A stretch of DNA of 29,617 bases from the UHGV virus genome UHGV-0179686. One strand, 5' to 3'. This DNA comes from a virus. The translations under genes were made by a program, and so were the position numbers. This document shows, piece by piece, positions 2,552 to 28,890 of this stretch. The notes beneath the pieces are model-generated. The model had not been told where the DNA came from. It made no database searches and worked only from the letters and a program-made list of their open reading frames with translations. Numbering within the stretch: position 1 is the first letter of the stretch; every line of letters starts with the position of its first letter.

Positions 2552-2860
2552 TTATCGGGTGGATGCGACAAGGATGACGTCTACGTCGATCATGTCGATG
2601 AGATCGTGGAGTTCCTCGGCCTCGTTCTCGGTGAGTGGCTGCCAGTCGTAGTCGCCGTATACGGCGCCGTCGAGGGTGACCGTCCACAGGGGCCGGATGA
2701 GTCGTACGGCTTCTTGTACTTTAGCGTGGTACATGCGGCGCACCATATCCAGATCGATGTCGCCTGAATGGTTTCCGGTGAGGCTGTGGAGGCTGAGCGG
2801 GTCGATTTCTGTCTGCCTGTAGAGGGATGTGAAGGATGGGGTGATGAGTGTGCCATCCAT
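2552..2860 (-). CDS. hypothetical protein (102 aa), tandem paralog of 2201..2512; first gene of the leftward arm next to the non-coding right end
   Basis: ORF-track frame; RBS GAAAGGAG about 9 nt upstream of ATG at 2860; paralogy with the 2201..2512 product by eye. Confidence 0.5.
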   Translation of the reverse strand: MDGTLITPSFTSLYRQTEIDPLSLHSLTGNHSGDIDLDMVRRMYHAKVQEAVRLIRPLWTVTLDGAVYGDYDWQPLTENEAEELHDLIDMIDVDVILVASTR

Positions 2861-2923
2861 GAGGGTGTGCTCCTTTCGGTGGTGTATGGGTTGTTGTGGT
2901 TTCTAGAGTGTGTAGGTTGCAAC

Positions 2924-2962
2924 CGGGAGTCAAGGCTGCGCTCAAACCTAGTGAGCGTTTCA
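2924..2962 (-). promoter_or_regulatory. repeated promoter/operator-like element B (TTGACT plus CGCTCA-N7-TGAGCG inverted repeat) upstream of the first leftward gene
   Basis: gtcaaggctgcgctcaaacctagtgagcgtttcatg; near-identical to element A; located about 65 nt upstream of start codon 2860. Confidence 0.35.
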
Positions 2963-3489
2963 TGCTGGAGTGTTGGGTGTGACGGATGTCACTTAAGCAT
3001 TTACCGCCTCTCCCAGCGTCTCAAATCTTCTGGGGGTAGGATTATATAGGGTTGACCCTGCTGATCGATTCTAGGGGCCTTCTAGGGCGTCTCAGGGGTA
3101 TGTCTGGGTGATAGCAGGTTCGGTAGATGACCCGGCAGATCTACCTTGGCTTTCATCACAAAGGTCGAGGTGCCAGATCTGGGCATGGAATCTACACCCT
3201 CATACTGTGTGAGATGTATCACATCCTCCTGGCGTGGTGTGCCCCCTCAAGGCCACTCTGTCGATCTGGCGTAGAGGGTGTAGCCCAGAAATGCCGTTTA
3301 AAGCTTCAGGGGTACGCCGAGGAGCGCCTTACAGGGTGGAGGCTAGGTATTTATACCCCCAGCACATTCTGATCAATCCTAGACGCCCCCAGGAGACTGA
3401 TACACGATCCACCATCTCGGCATAGACCATCAACCCCTATCCCGCTTAGCTAAGCCTCAACTATGTGGACAGTGTGGGATACTGAGGGG

Positions 3490-3520
3490 GAAGAAGGACA
3501 CGGTAAAAGAAAGAGGGGGG
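3490..3520. repeat. left copy of 30-bp inverted repeat (purine-rich on plus strand: gaagaaggacacggtaaaagaaagagggggg)
   Basis: Reverse complement matches 4902-4931 over 25 contiguous nt (tctttcttttaccgtgtccttcttc) plus flanking C/G run. Confidence 0.7.
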
Positions 3521-3575
3521 AGCATCAGCCTTCAAGCCTTAAGGTCTTAGCGCTTAGCACCGATGGTCTTAGCAG

Positions 3576-3608
3576 TTAGCACCGAGCCCCTCAAGGGCTC
3601 GGCATCAG
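3576..3608. repeat. 33-bp direct-repeat element copy 1 containing perfect GC hairpin CCGAGCCC-CTCAA-GGGCTCGG followed by CATCAG
   Basis: ttagcaccgagcccctcaagggctcggcatcag, identical to 4085-4117. Confidence 0.7.
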
Positions 3609-4039
3609 CCCGAACAGGCACAGCCCTGAAAGGAGTACACGCCATCAGGGAAGGCTTGAGAGTACGAGGAGCCCTAGCGACGAGTACTCGAAAGCCTGAG
3701 GGAAGACCATCAGCACTGATGGGCCTAGCGTGTTCGGAAAGGACACAAGGGTACAGTGTGAGAGCTGTTCGGGAGTGAAACCTGTTCTGACTAGGGGTTT
3801 CAGTCTTAACCACCCTCAAAGGTTACAAGACTCTAAGAAAATTTAAGGAAAAGTTTAGGTTTAATTTTTGGACCTTTACTACCAAAAACACCCGTTTACA
3901 CTCCTCAAACCCGCCTATAGAGCCAAATCCACCAGTTTGACTCATCCCAGGTGGCATATGATAGGCTGGACAGGTAGCCAGCTGGACGCAAGGCCGAAAT
4001 CCGCTGACGCGGCTTTCACCCTTACATCCATCAGTCTAC

Positions 4040-4530
4040 CAAACACTTTAAAGCTTCAAGGCTTAGCGCTAAGGTGCTGATAGCTTAGCACCGAGCCCCT
4101 CAAGGGCTCGGCATCAGTCTTAAAGCTTTAAACACTTTAAGTAACTTTAAAACCTTAACAGCTTAGCACTTAAGGATCTAAGTTACTATAAAAGCTTTAA
4201 AGTCTTAAAGTACATATAAAACCTTAACAGTTAAACGTTAAAAGCTTTAAACCTTAACACCTAAGTTAAGTATAAAACCTTAAAGGCTTAGCACTTAAGG
4301 ATATAAACTTCACATCAGTGTTTAAGACTTTACAGCTTAAAATAACTATTAAGACTTCAAGGCTTATAAGCTTTAAACACTTAAAGTAACTATAAAACTT
4401 TAAAAACCTTAAGTACTTAAAGTTAACCATCAGTCTTAAACTTTAATATTATAACCTATAAGTCTTAAAGCTTATAGGTATAATAATATAATATAAGTAT
4501 TAAAGCTTATAAGTTATAAAAGTTTTAGAA
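4040..4530. repeat. AT-rich degenerate tandem-repeat region (about 120-125 bp period, words cttaa/agctt/ttaaag/tataa); a shorter AT-rich patch also at 3826-3890
   Basis: A 60-nt sample 4141-4200 has 17 G+C by count, against visibly GC-rich flanks. gcttagcacttaaggat recurs at 4161 and 4286; agctttaaacactt at 4124 and 4369; aaaccttaa at 4151/4211/4271. Confidence 0.6.
4085..4117. repeat. 33-bp direct-repeat element copy 2 (same GC hairpin plus CATCAG)
   Basis: Identical to 3576-3608; spacing 509 bp. Confidence 0.7.
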
Positions 4531-4540
4531 GAGTTAAAGG

Positions 4541-4597
4541 GTTAACTTCTTTACTTCTCTTCTCTCTTTGGTTCTTTCTCTCTTCTCTTCTTTTCTT
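4541..4597. repeat. polypyrimidine (C/T) tract about 57 nt on plus strand, followed by purine run ggggagaagaggaa
   Basis: ttaacttctttacttctcttctctctttggttctttctctcttctcttcttttcttc; strand-asymmetric, mirror-like; H-DNA/triplex-forming potential. Confidence 0.5.
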
Positions 4598-4901
4598 CAT
4601 CAGGGGAGAAGAGGAACCTTTAACGTCAACGCTGACAGACTTTTCGCCGTGTGTCTCGTGTGCTTCTGGTCGCAAGCTCCCATCGCACACTCCCCACACT
4701 CTTACACCCGTGTCCCTTTCAGGCTTAGCGTGTTCGGCTGAAGGCGTACGGCTTGTCACGCTCACACCCTTAACACCAGGTAAGACTTAAAGTGTATATT
4801 ATAAGTAGAAGACTTTAAAACCTTAAGGGTGTTCCTGCTGAGCCTGTGTCCTTTAACGCTAGGCGCTAGGCGCTAAGCTGTGAAACGCGAACACCCATAC
4901 A

Positions 4902-4931
4902 CCCCTTCTTTCTTTTACCGTGTCCTTCTTC
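4902..4931. repeat. right copy of 30-bp inverted repeat (ccccttctttcttttaccgtgtccttcttc)
   Basis: Reverse complement of 3490-3520; the two copies bracket the AT-rich repeat module (about 1.38 kb). Confidence 0.7.
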
Positions 4932-5151
4932 TTTTGACACCGCTGGGGGGCGATGTGATCTTTCTCACACCCATGGGGGTAGTGGAGAAAACAACCACCC
5001 CGGCACACACAGAACACCCCCTCAAACGAACAAAACAGCCCCTAGGATCGAACAGTAGGGCACCGGTAGGGTATTCCTACCCCAAGACGATTCTAGGCCG
5101 TTACAGGAGAAATGAGAGGCTCGCAGGGGTTATAGGTGATTGGGGGATGCG

Positions 5152-5454
5152 ATGACACACACCAACCGCACCGCATCCTCCGCCCATCGGCGCTGGCGGG
5201 CAAGGCTCATCACCCAAGCCCAACAACAAGGCCAAACCGAATGCCCACTCTGCGGAGCCCAGATAGCCTGGGGCACACACGATCTACCAACTAGCCCCGA
5301 AGCCGACCACATCACACCCGTCAGCAGGGGAGGACTCAACACCCTCGACAACGGGCAAATCATCTGCAGAACATGCAACAGAAGCAAAGGCAATCGCAGC
5401 GAACCAAACATCAAATTCCAACAACAAACCACAAAAACATTGATTCCATGGTGA
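5152..5454 (+). CDS. HNH endonuclease (about 100 aa), adjacent to cos and terminase genes
   Basis: CPLCGAQ...DHITPVSRGGLNTLDNGQIICRTCNRSKGN is an HNH motif with two Cys pairs. ATG at 5152 with GGGGGA 5 nt upstream; ORF-track TTG at 5140 is an alternative. Confidence 0.75.
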   Translation: MTHTNRTASSAHRRWRARLITQAQQQGQTECPLCGAQIAWGTHDLPTSPEADHITPVSRGGLNTLDNGQIICRTCNRSKGNRSEPNIKFQQQTTKTLIPW

Positions 5455-5505
5455 CAAACCCGCCAACCCCCACCGGGGACACCCCCTGCACAGGCGTGCA
5501 AAACC

Positions 5506-5516
5506 TCGTACGGCTT
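5506..5516. other. candidate cohesive-end (cos) core TCGTACGGCTT between the HNH gene and the small terminase gene
   Basis: Sequence seen at 5506-5516. I recall this 11-nt 3' overhang being reported for C. acnes phages; contains CGTACG palindrome; flanked by TGCAC-aggc-GTGCA palindrome at 5488-5501. Confidence 0.55.
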
Positions 5517-5580
5517 AGTGAAATACCTCCCTTTTGTGGTTTTGTCTGTTTGTCGACTTTTTGTGTTGGTGGTGAGTGTT

Positions 5581-5889
5581 GTGCAGCCTGAGCTTCCTGA
5601 TGGTCGTGAGTGGTGTGGGGAGACGCGTCGTTGGTGGCGTGTGTGGGGTGAGGATAGTCGTGCGCAGTACGTGTCTGATGAGGAGTGGCTGTTTCTCATG
5701 GATGCTGCGGTGATTCATGATTGTGTGTGGCGTGAGGGTCGCGCGGATTTGGTGGCTTCGCTTCGTGCTCATGTGAAGGCGTTTATGGGCATGTTGGATC
5801 GTTATTCGGTTGATGTGGCGTCTGGTGGCCGTGGTGGGGGTTCTGCGGTGGCGATGATTGACCGGTATAGGAAGCGTAAAGGGGCCTAA
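5581..5889 (+). CDS. terminase small subunit (putative; start uncertain, ORF-track frame opens at 5518)
   Basis: Position immediately upstream of and overlapping (TAATG at 5887-5891) the large terminase. GTG at 5581 preceded by GGTGGTGAG. The N-terminal 20 codons of the ORF-track version are G/T-rich and look non-coding. Confidence 0.45.
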   Translation: MQPELPDGREWCGETRRWWRVWGEDSRAQYVSDEEWLFLMDAAVIHDCVWREGRADLVASLRAHVKAFMGMLDRYSVDVASGGRGGGSAVAMIDRYRKRKGA

Positions 5890-22838: not shown

Positions 22839-23240
22839 TTATCCCATCCCTGTGCTGTCGTCGTTTTCGTCTGGCATGTAGTATGTGCTGTTTGCGTACT
22901 CGGTTAACGTCATCAGTGTTTGGTCTGCCCACTGTTTCACGGTTTGCCGGGTGACACCCAATCGTTGGGCGGCTGTGGCGTAGGTTTGGTCGTATCCGTA
23001 GACTTCCCGGAATGCTGCCAACCTAGCTAAATGTTTTCGCTGTTTGGAGGGTTCACAGGTGAGGGTGTAGTCGTCGATGGCTAGCTGTAGATCGATCATG
23101 GTGGCAATGTTGTTGCCGTGATGCTGGGGGGCGGTTGGTGGGGGTGGCATTCCTGGCTCCACGGAGGGTTTCCATGGGCCGCCGTTCCAGATCCATTGGG
23201 CGGCTTGGATGATGTCGGCGGTGGTGTAGGTTCGGTTCAC
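22839..23240 (-). CDS. sigma-70 region-4-like HTH DNA-binding protein (133 aa)
   Basis: YATAAQRLGVTRQTVKQWADQ resembles the sigma region 4.2 helix-turn-helix. Confidence 0.5.
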   Translation of the reverse strand: MNRTYTTADIIQAAQWIWNGGPWKPSVEPGMPPPPTAPQHHGNNIATMIDLQLAIDDYTLTCEPSKQRKHLARLAAFREVYGYDQTYATAAQRLGVTRQTVKQWADQTLMTLTEYANSTYYMPDENDDSTGMG

Positions 23241-26252: not shown

Positions 26253-26924
26253 TTACTGTAGCACAGTGTTGAGGGCTTGTGTCAACCCTGTTTTGCCGGC
26301 CTGCAGGTAGGTGTCTGTGACATCCCCGACAGTGAGGGGCACATGGGTGGCTTGGGGGAGTGCTGCCTGGAGGGTTTGGGCCATCTGGTCGCCTGCGGGG
26401 TCTGGGTCTGACCAGATGTAGATGTGGTCGTAGCCTTCAAAAAATTTGGTCCAAAAGTTTTGCCACGAGGTGGCGCCGGGTAGGGCTACGGCCGACCATC
26501 CGCATTGTTCGAGGATCATGGAGTCGAATTCGCCTTCGCAAATGTGCATTTCGGCTGCCGGGTTGGCCATGGCGGCCATGTTGTAGATGGAGCCTGTGTC
26601 CCCTGCCGGGGTTAAGTATTTGGGGTGGTTGTGGGTTTTGCAGTCGTGCGGGAGTGAGCAGCGGAAACGCATTTTTCGTATTTCGGCTGGGCCGTCCCAT
26701 GTGGGGTACATGTAGGGGATGGTGATGCACTGGTTGTAGTTTTCGTGGCCTGGGATGGGGTCATTGTCGATGTATCCAAGGTGGTGGTTGCGGGCTGTTT
26801 CTTCGCTGATGCCTCTTGCTGAGAGCAGGTCGAGAATGTTTTCGAGGTGGGTTTCGTAGCGGGCTGATGCTTTCTGGATTCGGCGGCGTTCCGCAATGTT
26901 GTATGGGCGTATGCTGTCGTACAT
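26253..26924 (-). CDS. DNA primase, TOPRIM-domain part (223 aa)
   Basis: HICEGEFDSMILEQ...IYIWSDPDPAGDQ matches the TOPRIM E / DxD signature. Confidence 0.7.
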   Translation of the reverse strand: MYDSIRPYNIAERRRIQKASARYETHLENILDLLSARGISEETARNHHLGYIDNDPIPGHENYNQCITIPYMYPTWDGPAEIRKMRFRCSLPHDCKTHNHPKYLTPAGDTGSIYNMAAMANPAAEMHICEGEFDSMILEQCGWSAVALPGATSWQNFWTKFFEGYDHIYIWSDPDPAGDQMAQTLQAALPQATHVPLTVGDVTDTYLQAGKTGLTQALNTVLQ

Positions 26925-27162
26925 TCGGGTTTTCTTTCTCTAGTCGTTGTTGTAGTTTGGCGAGTCCGCCTCCGATGCCGCATGTGTGGCAGTACCAGAC
27001 GCCCTTGTCGAGGTTGATGCTCATGGAGGGCTGGTGGTCGTCGTGGAGCGGGCAGAGTATGTGTTGCTCGTTCCTGGATGGGTTGTACCGTATCTGGTAG
27101 GTGTCGAGGAGGTGGCGGGTGTCAGAGGTGTGGGAGGAGCTCGTTGAGGGTTGATACCACAT
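26761..27162 (-). CDS. DNA primase zinc-binding (CHC2) domain ORF; native sequence ends around 26926, remainder of frame overlaps the TOPRIM gene and looks non-native
   Basis: CPLHDDHQPSMSINLDKGVWYCHTCGIGG is a CHC2 zinc finger. After ...QQRLEKENP the frame reads P/R/H-rich sequence and overlaps 26253..26924, which sits in another frame. Confidence 0.6.
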   Translation of the reverse strand: MWYQPSTSSSHTSDTRHLLDTYQIRYNPSRNEQHILCPLHDDHQPSMSINLDKGVWYCHTCGIGGGLAKLQQRLEKENPNVRQHTPIQHCGTPPNPESISPLRNPPRKHSRPALSKRHQRRNSPQPPPWIHRQ

Positions 27163-27478
27163 AGGCTTCGCTCCAGGGTTTGTTGCGCTGTTTCATGATG
27201 ACTAGGCCGATGGTGGATTGGTTTTTGCGGTTTCGGTGGGTTTCGTAGTTGCGCGCCTCAAGGGTGGCTTCTTTCACGAATTGGGCTAGGTGTGGTTGCC
27301 CGGCTTTCGCCTCGATAATGTAGGTTTTGTTGCCGGTTTTGAGGATGAGGTCGCCTTCGTCTTCCCTTCCGTTGAGATGGAGGCGCTCTATATCATAGCC
27401 GGTGTCGCGTAGCTGGTGGAGGAGTCGTGTTTCCCATTCGGCTCCTGCCCTGCGGTTGCGTGCCTGTTGTGTCGACAT
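27122..27478 (-). CDS. Hjc-like Holliday-junction resolvase / PD-(D/E)XK nuclease (118 aa)
   Basis: GAEWETRLLHQLRDTGYD...DLILKTGNKTYIIEAK fits the G.E.E...L...G....D....IExK pattern. Confidence 0.45.
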   Translation of the reverse strand: MSTQQARNRRAGAEWETRLLHQLRDTGYDIERLHLNGREDEGDLILKTGNKTYIIEAKAGQPHLAQFVKEATLEARNYETHRNRKNQSTIGLVIMKQRNKPWSEAYVVSTLNELLPHL

Positions 27479-28341
27479 GATAGTCCTTTGTGTGTTGTGG
27501 TCATGTTCCAGGGCTGTTTTTCGGCGAGGGGCCCGAAGAATGTGTATTCGGGGTAGGCTCGTAGTCTTTCGTATCGGGTGCCGTCTGGGCTGGATTTGCC
27601 TGTGCGCTGTTTCAACACTGCGATGCGTGCCTCGGCGGGGATGGTGAGCCCGTTGCCATTATCCTCGCCACCATACAATGATACTCCGAGAATGAGTTGT
27701 GGTTTTTCGGAGAGTCCGTTTTTGATTTCCCGGCGTGCTGGCGGGTGTTCGATGTCGGAGCCGGTTTTGTCGGTTGCGTGGTGTGTGACAATAATGGTGG
27801 AGCCAGTATCCCTACCCAATGCTGTGATCCATTGCATGGCTTCTTGCTGGGCCTGATAGTCACTCTCGCAGTCTTGGATGTCCATGAGGTTGTCGATAAC
27901 AATGAGTGGTGGGAAGGTGTTCCACATTTCCATGTAGGCTTGCAGTTCCATGGTGATGTCGGTCCAGGTGATGGGTGACTGGAATGAGAAGGTGATGTGT
28001 TGGCCGTGGTGGATGCTGTCTCGATAGTATTCTGGCCCGTAGTTGTCGATGTTGTGTTGTATCTGTGTGGTGGTGTGTTGGGTGTTGAGTGAGATGATTC
28101 GTGTGGAGGCCTCCCAGGGTGTCATGTCCCCTGATATGTAGAGGGCGGGCTGGTTGAGCATGGCGGTGATGAACATGGCTAGCCCGGATTTTTGGCTGCC
28201 GGAGCGCCCCGCGATCATGACTAGGTCCCCTTTGTGGATGTGCATGTCCAGGTTGCGGTAGAGGGGTTCTAGCTGGGGTATGCGGGGCAGCTCGGCGGCT
28301 GTTTGGGAGGCCCTCTCGAAGGATCGTTGTAGAGAGAGCAT
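27388..28341 (-). CDS. DnaB-like helicase C-terminal domain / RecA-fold ATPase (317 aa)
   Basis: Walker A-like AGRSGSQKSGLAM, Walker B-like PLIVIDNLMD. Confidence 0.6.
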   Translation of the reverse strand: MLSLQRSFERASQTAAELPRIPQLEPLYRNLDMHIHKGDLVMIAGRSGSQKSGLAMFITAMLNQPALYISGDMTPWEASTRIISLNTQHTTTQIQHNIDNYGPEYYRDSIHHGQHITFSFQSPITWTDITMELQAYMEMWNTFPPLIVIDNLMDIQDCESDYQAQQEAMQWITALGRDTGSTIIVTHHATDKTGSDIEHPPARREIKNGLSEKPQLILGVSLYGGEDNGNGLTIPAEARIAVLKQRTGKSSPDGTRYERLRAYPEYTFFGPLAEKQPWNMTTTHKGLSCRHNRHATAGQEPNGKHDSSTSYATPAMI

Positions 28342-28382
28342 CGGAGCCTTTATCTATCTATCGGTTGGTTGTGTTTTGGTGG

Positions 28383-28853
28383 TCAGATGGAGTCGATGTC
28401 GATATCAGCATCAGTTGAGGCTGTGGTGTCGTCTAGCTGGCCGTTATCGCGTTTGTCTACGTATCCGGCAACCTTATCGTAGATGGCGTCATCAAGGGGT
28501 TTGAGCACGACCGCGTTGAAGCCGTTTTTGGTGCGTACGGTGGCGAGTTTGAAGGCCTGTTCTTCGCCGAGATAGGCTTCGAGGTCGCGGATCATGGAGT
28601 GTGGGCGGTCGTTGTTGCCGCGTGCTTTTTCGATAATAGCGTTGGGGATGGTTTCTGGGGTGCCGTTGTTGAGATCGTCTAGGGTGTGGAAGATGGTGAC
28701 ATCAGCGTAAATACGATCGGCGGTCTGTCCACCGTAGCCTTCAGTGTTGTGTTCCACGTCGTGCACTTTGAAGGCGATGGCGGTGGCGTCCTGGTTTCGG
28801 GATGGGTTGAAGAAGGTGCTGTTATTGCTGTTGCGGTAGTTGGCGAGTCCCAT
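28383..28853 (-). CDS. hypothetical protein (156 aa, acidic C-terminus)
   Basis: ORF-track frame; RBS AAAGGAAAC before ATG 28853. Confidence 0.5.
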   Translation of the reverse strand: MGLANYRNSNNSTFFNPSRNQDATAIAFKVHDVEHNTEGYGGQTADRIYADVTIFHTLDDLNNGTPETIPNAIIEKARGNNDRPHSMIRDLEAYLGEEQAFKLATVRTKNGFNAVVLKPLDDAIYDKVAGYVDKRDNGQLDDTTASTDADIDIDSI

Positions 28854-28890
28854 TGTTGTTTCCTTTACTGTTGTGTTGGTTTATATTGGT

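Follow-up and report, generated by a model that had tools for sequence, protein, structure and literature searches.

What is the function of a stretch of DNA of about 1.4 kb that is framed by two 30-bp inverted repeats and holds no credible gene, in the small genome of a phage? The question is raised by positions 3490-4931 of the virus sequence UHGV-0179686, which at its full length of 29,617 nt is the window analyzed here and which was found to be a complete Pahexavirus (Cutibacterium acnes phage) genome, rotated by ~5.5 kb. The object is the non-coding region known from this genus and already described in 2012. The 1.44-kb segment framed by the repeats is no discrete module but the middle part of a ~2.3-kb control region, and this control region is carried by every C. 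acnes phage, between the leftward early/replication genes and the block formed by the HNH endonuclease gene, the cohesive-end site (cos) and the terminase. What is new beyond the published descriptions is a nested symmetry, the repeated homogenization of the repeat arms, a covarying hairpin on the minus strand, and a map of dispensable and indispensable parts. We tentatively favor the reading that the region is a dyad-symmetric replication origin/control region, a function that is inferred from the comparisons below.

The inverted repeat held up on recount. A repeat search returned two arms of 30 nt, 29/30 (97%) complementary and 1382 nt apart, and their 25 contiguous matches, as first reported from the letters alone, are the longest exact inverted match in the genome, compared with 12-16 nt in 20 shuffled genomes. 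The arm motif has no occurrence elsewhere in the genome.

3490-3519, no strand assigned: left arm, purine-rich on the plus strand (GAAGAAGGACACGGTAAAAGAAAGAGGGGG), highly conserved and never deleted in 77 relatives.
4902-4931, no strand assigned: right arm, pyrimidine-rich on the plus strand, from the repeat search and the alignment.

For comparison, 80 related loci were collected via the HNH protein, and 77 distinct region sequences were aligned. The repeat is kept in 76 of these 77 relatives, typically with GAAGAAGGACACGGTAAAAGAAAGAGGGGG on the left and, in most relatives, GAAGAAGGACACG[GA]AAGAAAAA[AT]GGGGG as the reverse complement of the right arm; a typical relative has an exact core of 8-14 nt within an imperfect 26-32-nt repeat (~80-85%), and apart from this phage only a few have the perfect 30-bp form. 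Few stretches of the region are as well conserved as the left arm. The right arm varies more than either the left arm or its own neighbors, and its T/C runs change in length. Near-perfect arms were seen in this genome, in L003, L024, and PA6 (L047), and partly in L034 and L054, while in L025 the left arm has been converted to the right-arm form. The phages with near-perfect arms are not mutual nearest relatives (they lie 0.09-0.20 apart, mostly ≥0.11, where the median distance is 0.148). Because their nearest relatives carry ordinary arms, the arms appear to have been homogenized repeatedly and in both directions, or else an allele has spread by recombination.

To the arms, further layers of symmetry can be added. 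The region was aligned against its own reverse complement, and z-scores were obtained from 16 sampled genomes.

3024-3078, no strand assigned: outer inverted repeat, left half, with its partner at 5038-5092 (56 nt, 77%, E 1e-4).
5038-5092, no strand assigned: outer inverted repeat, right half, from the self-reverse-complement alignment and the 16-genome z-scores.
3604-3640, no strand assigned: inner inverted similarity, left half, CAGCCCGAACAGGCACAGCCCTGAAAGGAGTACACG against the reverse complement of its partner, CAGCCGAACACGCTAAGCCTGAAAGGGACACGG.
~4707-4741, no strand assigned: inner inverted similarity, right half, from the self-reverse-complement alignment.
4121-4175 and 4278-4332, no strand assigned: internal palindrome of the AT-rich core, from the self-reverse-complement alignment.

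With the arms masked, the inner similarity gave a local alignment score of 57, against 29±5 in shuffles. Across the 16 genomes, the mean z was 8.9 for the outer pair, 3.9 for the inner pair, and 7.6 for the core, compared with 1.8 for a direct-orientation control. The centers of the nested inverted pairs fall at 4058-4230, and because the outer, arm, inner, and core pairs share this center, the region is a large degenerate palindrome centered on the AT-rich core, of which the 30-bp repeat is one layer.

The only outgroup for the region is the C. avidum phage CA1NRNZ (L082). Its non-coding region contains nested inverted repeats of 29, 37, and 56 nt, centered on an AT-rich palindrome and flanked by polypurine and polypyrimidine tracts. 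Homologous non-coding regions were not found in L083 and L084, the HNH relatives of the C. avidum phage. A single part of the region, of ~70 nt, has sequence similarity to CA1NRNZ.

3904-3975, no strand assigned: near-invariant element with the blocks AACCCGCCTATAGAGCCAAA and ATATGATAGGCTGGACAG, recognized by its similarity to CA1NRNZ and by its conservation.

Since CA1NRNZ keeps the architecture without sequence similarity beyond these ~70 nt, the conservation of layout where sequence has diverged argues for a function at the DNA level. The shared element was also considered as a structured RNA and rejected as such, its local hairpins not being positionally conserved between the two phages; it points to a DNA sequence signal rather than an RNA structure. 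In CA1NRNZ, GAATATGATAGGCTGGAC, which is common to the C. acnes phages, recurs as GAATATGATAATCGGGAC about 50 nt upstream of a methyltransferase gene, and this second copy hints at a promoter or operator element.

CA1NRNZ (L082) 3050-3067 and 3524-3541: the copies GAATATGATAGGCTGGAC and GAATATGATAATCGGGAC.

How widely the region is kept was assessed for its whole extent.

2861-5139, no strand assigned: the whole non-coding region, from ORF (open reading frame) conservation, matches to phage records, the MrAK annotation, and Marinelli 2012.

This interval is matched by 231 Propionibacterium/Cutibacterium acnes phage records at 80-95% identity, and 154 of the 231 cover ≥80% of it. Fourteen ORFs of ≥40 amino acids within it were tested; none was intact across 76 relatives and none showed third-codon-position variation, in line with the earlier statement that no credible ORF is present. 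As controls, the HNH gene was intact in 76/76 and a gp44-like gene in 72/76 relatives. Only the terminal inverted repeats around non-coding DNA would suit a nonautonomous mobile element resembling a miniature inverted-repeat transposable element, or a segment inverted by recombination between the arms. The interior has the same orientation in 81/81 related loci (237 alignments in plus orientation, with a single minus match that is low-complexity and AT-rich). Among the 77 relatives, there is no clean empty site and all length variation is internal. The flanks, ...TACTGAGGGG before the left arm and TTTTGACACC after the right arm (GAGGGG vs TTTTGA), form no target-site duplication. No second copy was found in the genome, no match in the plasmid collection, and no recombinase or transposase domain in the right-arm ORFs scanned. 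An 18-mer common to the C. acnes and C. avidum phages had nine matches in a species-representative genome set, all in unrelated taxa and none in Cutibacterium, which is about the chance expectation for 18 nt in 6e11 bases. Because of the fixed orientation, the lack of an empty site, and the lack of another arm copy, the mobile-element and invertible-switch readings were rejected as scarcely credible. Integration and partitioning systems are absent from C. acnes phages (Marinelli 2012).

Natural deletions distinguish the layers of the palindrome. PAS50 (L051) lacks 3551-4082 and 2973-3182, and several other phages lack 2964-3182. The outer left half lies inside a 210-nt stretch missing from several phages and is thus dispensable. 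PAS50 is viable and pseudolysogenic (Lood & Collin 2011). Because they are absent in PAS50 or the deletion variants, the outer-left and inner-left repeat halves, four CATCAG sites, the element shared with the C. avidum phage, and a minus-strand hairpin described below are dispensable. Never deleted in the 77 relatives are both arms, ~4415-4449, a polypyrimidine tract, and 4572-4946. The arms are the best-kept and only indispensable layer of the nested inverted repeats. The larger PAS50 deletion is accounted for by recombination between two 70-nt direct repeats, since its published extent falls exactly between them.

3539-3608, plus: 70-nt direct repeat, copy 1, with a GC hairpin at 3582-3602 and CATCAG at 3603-3608.
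4048-4117, plus: 70-nt direct repeat, copy 2, with a GC hairpin at 4091-4111 and CATCAG at 4112-4117.

These copies account for the duplicated hairpins noticed in the initial inspection: each holds the hairpin CCGAGCCC-CTCAA-GGGCTCGG followed by CATCAG, and among relatives the stems are near-invariant and the loop is variable. The ~530 nt of highly conserved non-coding DNA that PAS50 lacks at 3551-4082 are dispensable, and offer a possible payload site for engineering.

Alternatively, the arms and the inner and outer similarities might be leftovers of an ancient inverted duplication, functionless as a pair and kept alike only by occasional gene conversion. In keeping with this, the left interior resembles the reverse complement of the right interior beyond the arms, the outer and inner layers are those that the deletion variants dispense with, and the right arm is less conserved than its surroundings. 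However, the arms are retained in 76/77 genomes while neighboring stretches suffer deletions, the left arm is under evident conservation, and an independent phage lineage, that of CA1NRNZ, keeps the same type of symmetry with a different sequence, which makes a relic improbable.

At the center of the symmetry lies the AT-rich core, bordered by the polypyrimidine tract and overlapped by a set of CATCAG motifs.

4113-4545, no strand assigned: AT-rich core, GC 0.18-0.36, internally palindromic.
4546-4598, plus: polypyrimidine tract, purine fraction 0.08, near-invariant, at the right edge of the AT core.
3523, 3603, 3643, 3708, 4029, 4112, 4313, 4428, and 4598, plus: nine CATCAG copies.

The repetitive character ascribed to the core in the sequence-only reading is borne out. 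It is built of short units of the CTTAAAG, CTTTAAA, AAAGCTT, and AACCTTAA types and contains the GC minimum (0.247 in 300-nt windows, 0.18 in 50-nt windows). Its short degenerate repeats have periods of 29 and 35 nt in Tandem Repeats Finder (TRF) and fall into four direct-repeat families, and the base-identity autocorrelation over 4040-4540 peaks at 7-8, 35, and 42 nt. The core is the most indel-prone part among the relatives, with many indels of 25-126 nt. Many of the indels between phages are multiples of 7 (28, 35, 42, 56, 70, 91, 126), which suggests a heptamer-based repeat that expands and contracts. The polypyrimidine tract, likewise confirmed, has at its center TCTTTGGTNCTTTCT, common to CA1NRNZ, where the TCTTTGGTNCTTTCT tract is one arm of a 25-37-nt inverted repeat directly flanking the AT core.

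Between 3523 and 4603, the nine plus-strand copies of CATCAG are accompanied by one on the minus strand. Genome-wide, there are 40 copies against 17.9 expected, and in the region the enrichment is ~15-fold, on a single strand. Of the nine sites, seven persist in ≥68/77 relatives. Five copies lie within or beside members of a 16-nt family, ATCAGYCTTMAAGCYT, whose 5 copies are scattered and not tandem, and several lie beside or inside hairpins. The motifs had been called iterons; they are indeed conserved and enriched, but classical iterons are 17-22 bp long, regularly spaced, and accompanied by an initiator, and in these respects the name does not fit. On the minus strand, CTGATG stands immediately before three stable hairpins, namely the covarying one and the two GC hairpins, and other CTGATG copies sit in a hairpin loop or palindrome; CTGATG plus hairpin may be a composite signal. 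A role of CATCAG as a Chi-like end-protection signal was considered as well, and its genome-wide orientation bias was found to be largely predicted by the G/T skew.

Short motifs repeated on the same strand, in phages that persist as episomes, could also mark a centromere-like site that keeps the circular genome of a pseudolysogenic phage from being lost as cells divide. We consider this most unlikely, given that the phage has no ParA/ParB/ParR-type gene, that the literature describes these phages as lacking partitioning systems, that carriage is unstable, and that PAS50 is still pseudolysogenic without four of the repeats.

One element of the region is specific to a strand.

3983-4030, minus: hairpin with a 17-bp core at 3988-4025 and a GUCA/GUUA loop.

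Two very different sequence versions of this hairpin, plus minor variants, occur among the relatives, and all haplotypes fold to -32 to -34 kcal/mol (z of about -7) in the minus sense, compared with -15 to -18 kcal/mol in the plus sense. Over the 21 distinct haplotypes, 94.1% of cells are paired in the minus sense, and in six pairs both partners have changed; the covariation score of 0.373 compares with 0.235 in shuffles (0/500), and slid controls pair at 34-54%. In the plus sense, only 78.7% pair, as 57 G·U cells turn into A·C. Compensatory and G·U changes therefore preserve the 17-bp stem, but only on the minus strand. DNA parameters gave the same strand bias with the two versions unequal (-18.9 vs -13.4), and since RNA parameters give equal stability for both versions, the modeled energies mildly favor a hairpin that acts as RNA. 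Either a leftward transcript would cross the hairpin, or the minus strand would be used as single-stranded DNA (ssDNA), for example as a priming signal. In a shuffle-controlled fold scan of the region, only the minus-strand signal at 3961-4055 stood out, and no comparable strand-specific structure was seen; a blind stem scan of the alignment was too noisy to use, and a plain plus/minus folding-energy profile is confounded by strand composition. Rfam covariance models run on both strands at a permissive threshold gave best E values of 0.5-1, far below gathering scores, and ARAGORN found no tRNA or tmRNA in the region.

Single-strand constraints of this kind bring up the question of whether the arms themselves pair as RNA in the plus sense, either as a stem closing a 1.4-kb transcript or as antisense control, in which a rightward leader would contain the pyrimidine-rich right arm and be bound there by a small RNA with the purine-rich left arm. 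In 66/77 genomes, the arm duplex gains stability in the plus relative to the minus sense (mean, -43.7 vs -40.3 kcal/mol), recurrent differences between the arms are G·U-compatible in the plus sense, and a few phages, L020 and L073 (both ACGCGG) and L039 (GGCACGG), have the same change in both arms. On the other hand, many single-arm changes among the 77 relatives disrupt the pairing, the difference in energy is slight and may stem from base composition, the best candidate for a rightward promoter begins downstream of the right arm, the one proven structure is on the opposite (minus) strand, and a nested symmetry reaching into an AT-rich core is typical rather of a site that works as DNA. We regard RNA pairing of the arms as rather improbable, and its particular form in which a plus-sense small RNA, running from the left arm to the first GC hairpin, pairs with the right arm in rightward transcripts as very improbable. 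Satellite phage P4 and phages P1/P7 have RNA-based immunity systems in which a small RNA pairs with complementary repeats in the same-strand leader. The likeness lies in same-strand complementary sequences in a leader-like non-coding region and in the lack of a classical lysogeny module; the arms here differ in being 1.4 kb apart, the proven structure lies on the other strand, and the small RNA is hypothetical. If it were true, such pairing would amount to a protein-free, P4/P1-like immunity switch in repressor-poor, integrase-less phages, and would explain pseudolysogeny and superinfection resistance, with the minus-strand hairpin RNA in the same regulatory locus.

Candidate promoters were read by eye around these elements.

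4934-4962, plus: candidate rightward promoter, TTGACA-17 nt-(TGt)GATCTT.
4780-4830, minus: candidate leftward promoter, TTAAGG-17 nt-TATAAT, in an invariant AT-rich island.

The TTGACA of the first begins two bases after the right arm and points to HNH, cos, and terminase; the candidate is invariant in nearly all relatives, and its -10 part is deleted in L066. The third candidate by eye is the minus-strand TGGTAGACT just upstream of the hairpin. A consensus promoter/terminator scan of the region was not above chance and did not report the 4780-4830 candidate. Directly before the left arm, TGGGATACT could be read as an extended -10, but this reading was rejected because the key bases are not conserved.

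This arrangement could be that of an operator pair, in which the arms are mirror-oriented sites for a phage regulator, upstream of outward promoters (rightward for HNH/cos/late genes and leftward for early genes), and possibly bridged by a DNA loop in the manner of lambda OL/OR or phage 186 FL/FR. The regulator could be the gp23-like protein with a helix-turn-helix (HTH)/sigma70-region-4 domain that the phage encodes at 22842-23240, proposed as a repressor or modulator (Marinelli 2012), or another phage protein. The invariant plus-strand TTGACA-17-TGtGATCTT so close to the right arm, the position of the region between divergent transcription units, and the restriction of the arm motif to this region are all compatible with operators. 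Counting against them are the loss of the -10 of the rightward candidate in L066, the lack of a convincing mirrored promoter at the left arm, where the best -10 candidate is not conserved, and the chance-level promoter scan; binding to the arms is a proposal. Overall, an operator pair is unlikely, though less so than the other rival readings.

The genome provides part of a replication apparatus. Its right arm encodes a DnaG-type primase, a DnaB-like helicase, and an exonuclease, and the right-arm ORFs scanned included no polymerase and no recognizable initiator. The primase lies in two overlapping ORFs on the minus strand (Zn-ribbon, 26761-27162; Toprim, 26253-26924). These overlap by ~160 nt in different frames and could be two subunits or a frameshift. 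Throughout the genome, G exceeds C on the plus strand regardless of gene orientation, except at ~3800-5600, where the cumulative G-C falls; a GC-skew switch was used to propose an origin here (Marinelli 2012). The plus strand is G- and T-rich across rightward and leftward gene blocks alike. The reversal spans the right half of the non-coding region and the HNH gene, a plus-strand gene with a skew opposite to that of all other plus-strand genes, and ends at cos. The skew speaks for a special region with a link to replication more than it singles out the AT core.

Collectively, these observations support a dyad-symmetric replication origin/control region, because the region is conserved (in 231 records) without a conserved ORF and at a GC of 0.18-0.25, because nested inverted repeats are present in 16/16 sampled genomes with a similar layout in CA1NRNZ, because the arms are kept in 76/77 genomes and homogenized in both directions while CATCAG is enriched and conserved, and because the phage encodes helicase and primase and reverses its G>C skew nowhere but at 3800-5600. 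In such an origin, a putative DNA-binding protein would bind mirror-oriented motifs on both sides of the core, candidates being the CATCAG-type motifs and, in the arms, AAGGACACGG together with a purine run. Melting of the AT-rich core would follow, with loading of the DnaB-like helicase and DnaG-type primase that the phage itself encodes; the polypurine/polypyrimidine tract and the minus-strand hairpin may serve as auxiliary signals for transcription or priming. Protein binding, core melting, helicase loading, and the start of replication at this region are steps that we infer.

Several findings weigh against an origin centered on the core, and they keep our preference for it tentative. DnaA boxes were not found in the non-coding region. 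The CATCAG copies are 6-mers spaced irregularly by 40-321 nt, unlike the 17-22-bp tandem iterons of known origins, and PAS50 is viable without 3551-4082, a stretch with four CATCAG copies, one half of the inner repeat, the hairpin, and the ~70 nt in common with CA1NRNZ. By the usual convention, a change of skew from minus to plus is of the origin type; that change lies at ~5500-5600 beside cos, the one near 3800 is of the terminus type, and the AT core is in the middle of the reversed stretch. The minus-strand hairpin and the G·U bias of the arms indicate some single-strand constraint, on RNA or ssDNA, beyond duplex DNA. Finally, transcript or origin mapping for these phages was not found in the literature. 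Among the four functions offered by the sequence-only reading, a replication origin is compatible with the data, the invertible segment and the mobile element are contradicted, and a partition site is unsupported.

Known origins resemble the region in part. Dyad-symmetric viral origins, such as oriS/oriL of herpes simplex virus 1 (HSV-1) and the core origin of simian virus 40 (SV40), are 50-150 bp long and are served by a known origin-binding helicase. They share with the region a palindromic layout with inverted motif copies flanking an AT-rich center; however, the symmetry here spans 1.4-2 kb, its center is a 400-bp repeat array, and the binding protein is putative. Iteron-type theta origins, such as the phage lambda ori and those of plasmids pSC101/R6K/P1, likewise place same-orientation motifs beside an AT-rich unwinding element (here 4113-4545), whereas the repeats here are 6-16 nt and irregular, with no adjacent initiator gene and no DnaA box. 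The origin of lactococcal phage c2 lies near cos in non-coding DNA from which early and late promoters diverge, and requires a non-coding transcript. Here too, a cos phage has AT-rich non-coding DNA full of repeats where two gene blocks diverge, with evidence for a non-coding transcript or single-strand signal; the two differ in that there is no sequence relation and that transcription dependence and origin activity in the present case are proposals.

The position of the region agrees with published accounts of the genus.

5506-5516, plus: cos 11-nt overhang TCGTACGGCTT, the same overhang as in Marinelli 2012.

The genome naturally begins at 5517, where the canonical left end AGTGAAATACC... 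follows cos, and the repeat-bounded segment lies 0.6-2 kb from the natural right end. The left neighbor of the non-coding region is the gp44-like gene (2552-2860, minus strand), the last leftward gene, and the right neighbor is the HNH endonuclease gene (5152-5454, plus strand). A >1-kb non-coding region near the right end was described as a putative replication origin (Marinelli 2012, mBio), a 1.4-kb regulatory non-coding region was placed at this locus (Brüggemann & Lood 2013), and divergent promoters were predicted in the AT-rich part of the region, with a ~500-bp deletion in PAS50 (Lood & Collin 2011). The claim that no such module had been assigned for this phage type was therefore mistaken, the region having been published in 2012 and 2013. 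The region analyzed here is at the same locus in the same genus, ≤~2.5 kb from the right cos and gene-free over >1 kb. It shows the drop in GC, to <25% in both, the conserved low-complexity runs, the reversal of GC skew, and the greatest indel variation. The published boundaries (PA6 27431-28877) were set by ORF calls and not by the inverted repeat. Neither the 30-bp inverted repeat and nested symmetry nor the CATCAG set and minus-strand hairpin are mentioned in these descriptions (Marinelli 2012; Lood & Collin 2011; Brüggemann & Lood 2013).

Near these landmarks, a second exact copy of the 11-nt cos overhang lies inside the gp44-like gene (2702-2712) and a 10/11 copy in the non-coding region (4744-4754), giving 3 matches in total against 0.39 expected. 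The 4744-4754 copy is probably not a functional pseudo-cos, as it is only 9/11 (GCGTACGGCGT) in 70/77 relatives. The genes at 2201-2512 and 2552-2860, both on the minus strand, are paralogues, both assigned to phrog_919 and with no Pfam domain; these paralogues beside the region are candidates for a DNA-binding or initiator function.

As a discovery, the result is modest, since the region was already on record and no member of the genus lacks it. Its value lies in what it adds to phages that are candidates for acne therapy, in a host, C. acnes, that is hard to engineer. The indispensable arms, the dispensable 530-nt stretch, the AT core with its fixed polypyrimidine edge, and the strand-specific hairpin make up a parts list that turns the putative origin of 2012 into testable constructs, and these may yield a phage-derived replicon or phagemid for C. 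acnes.

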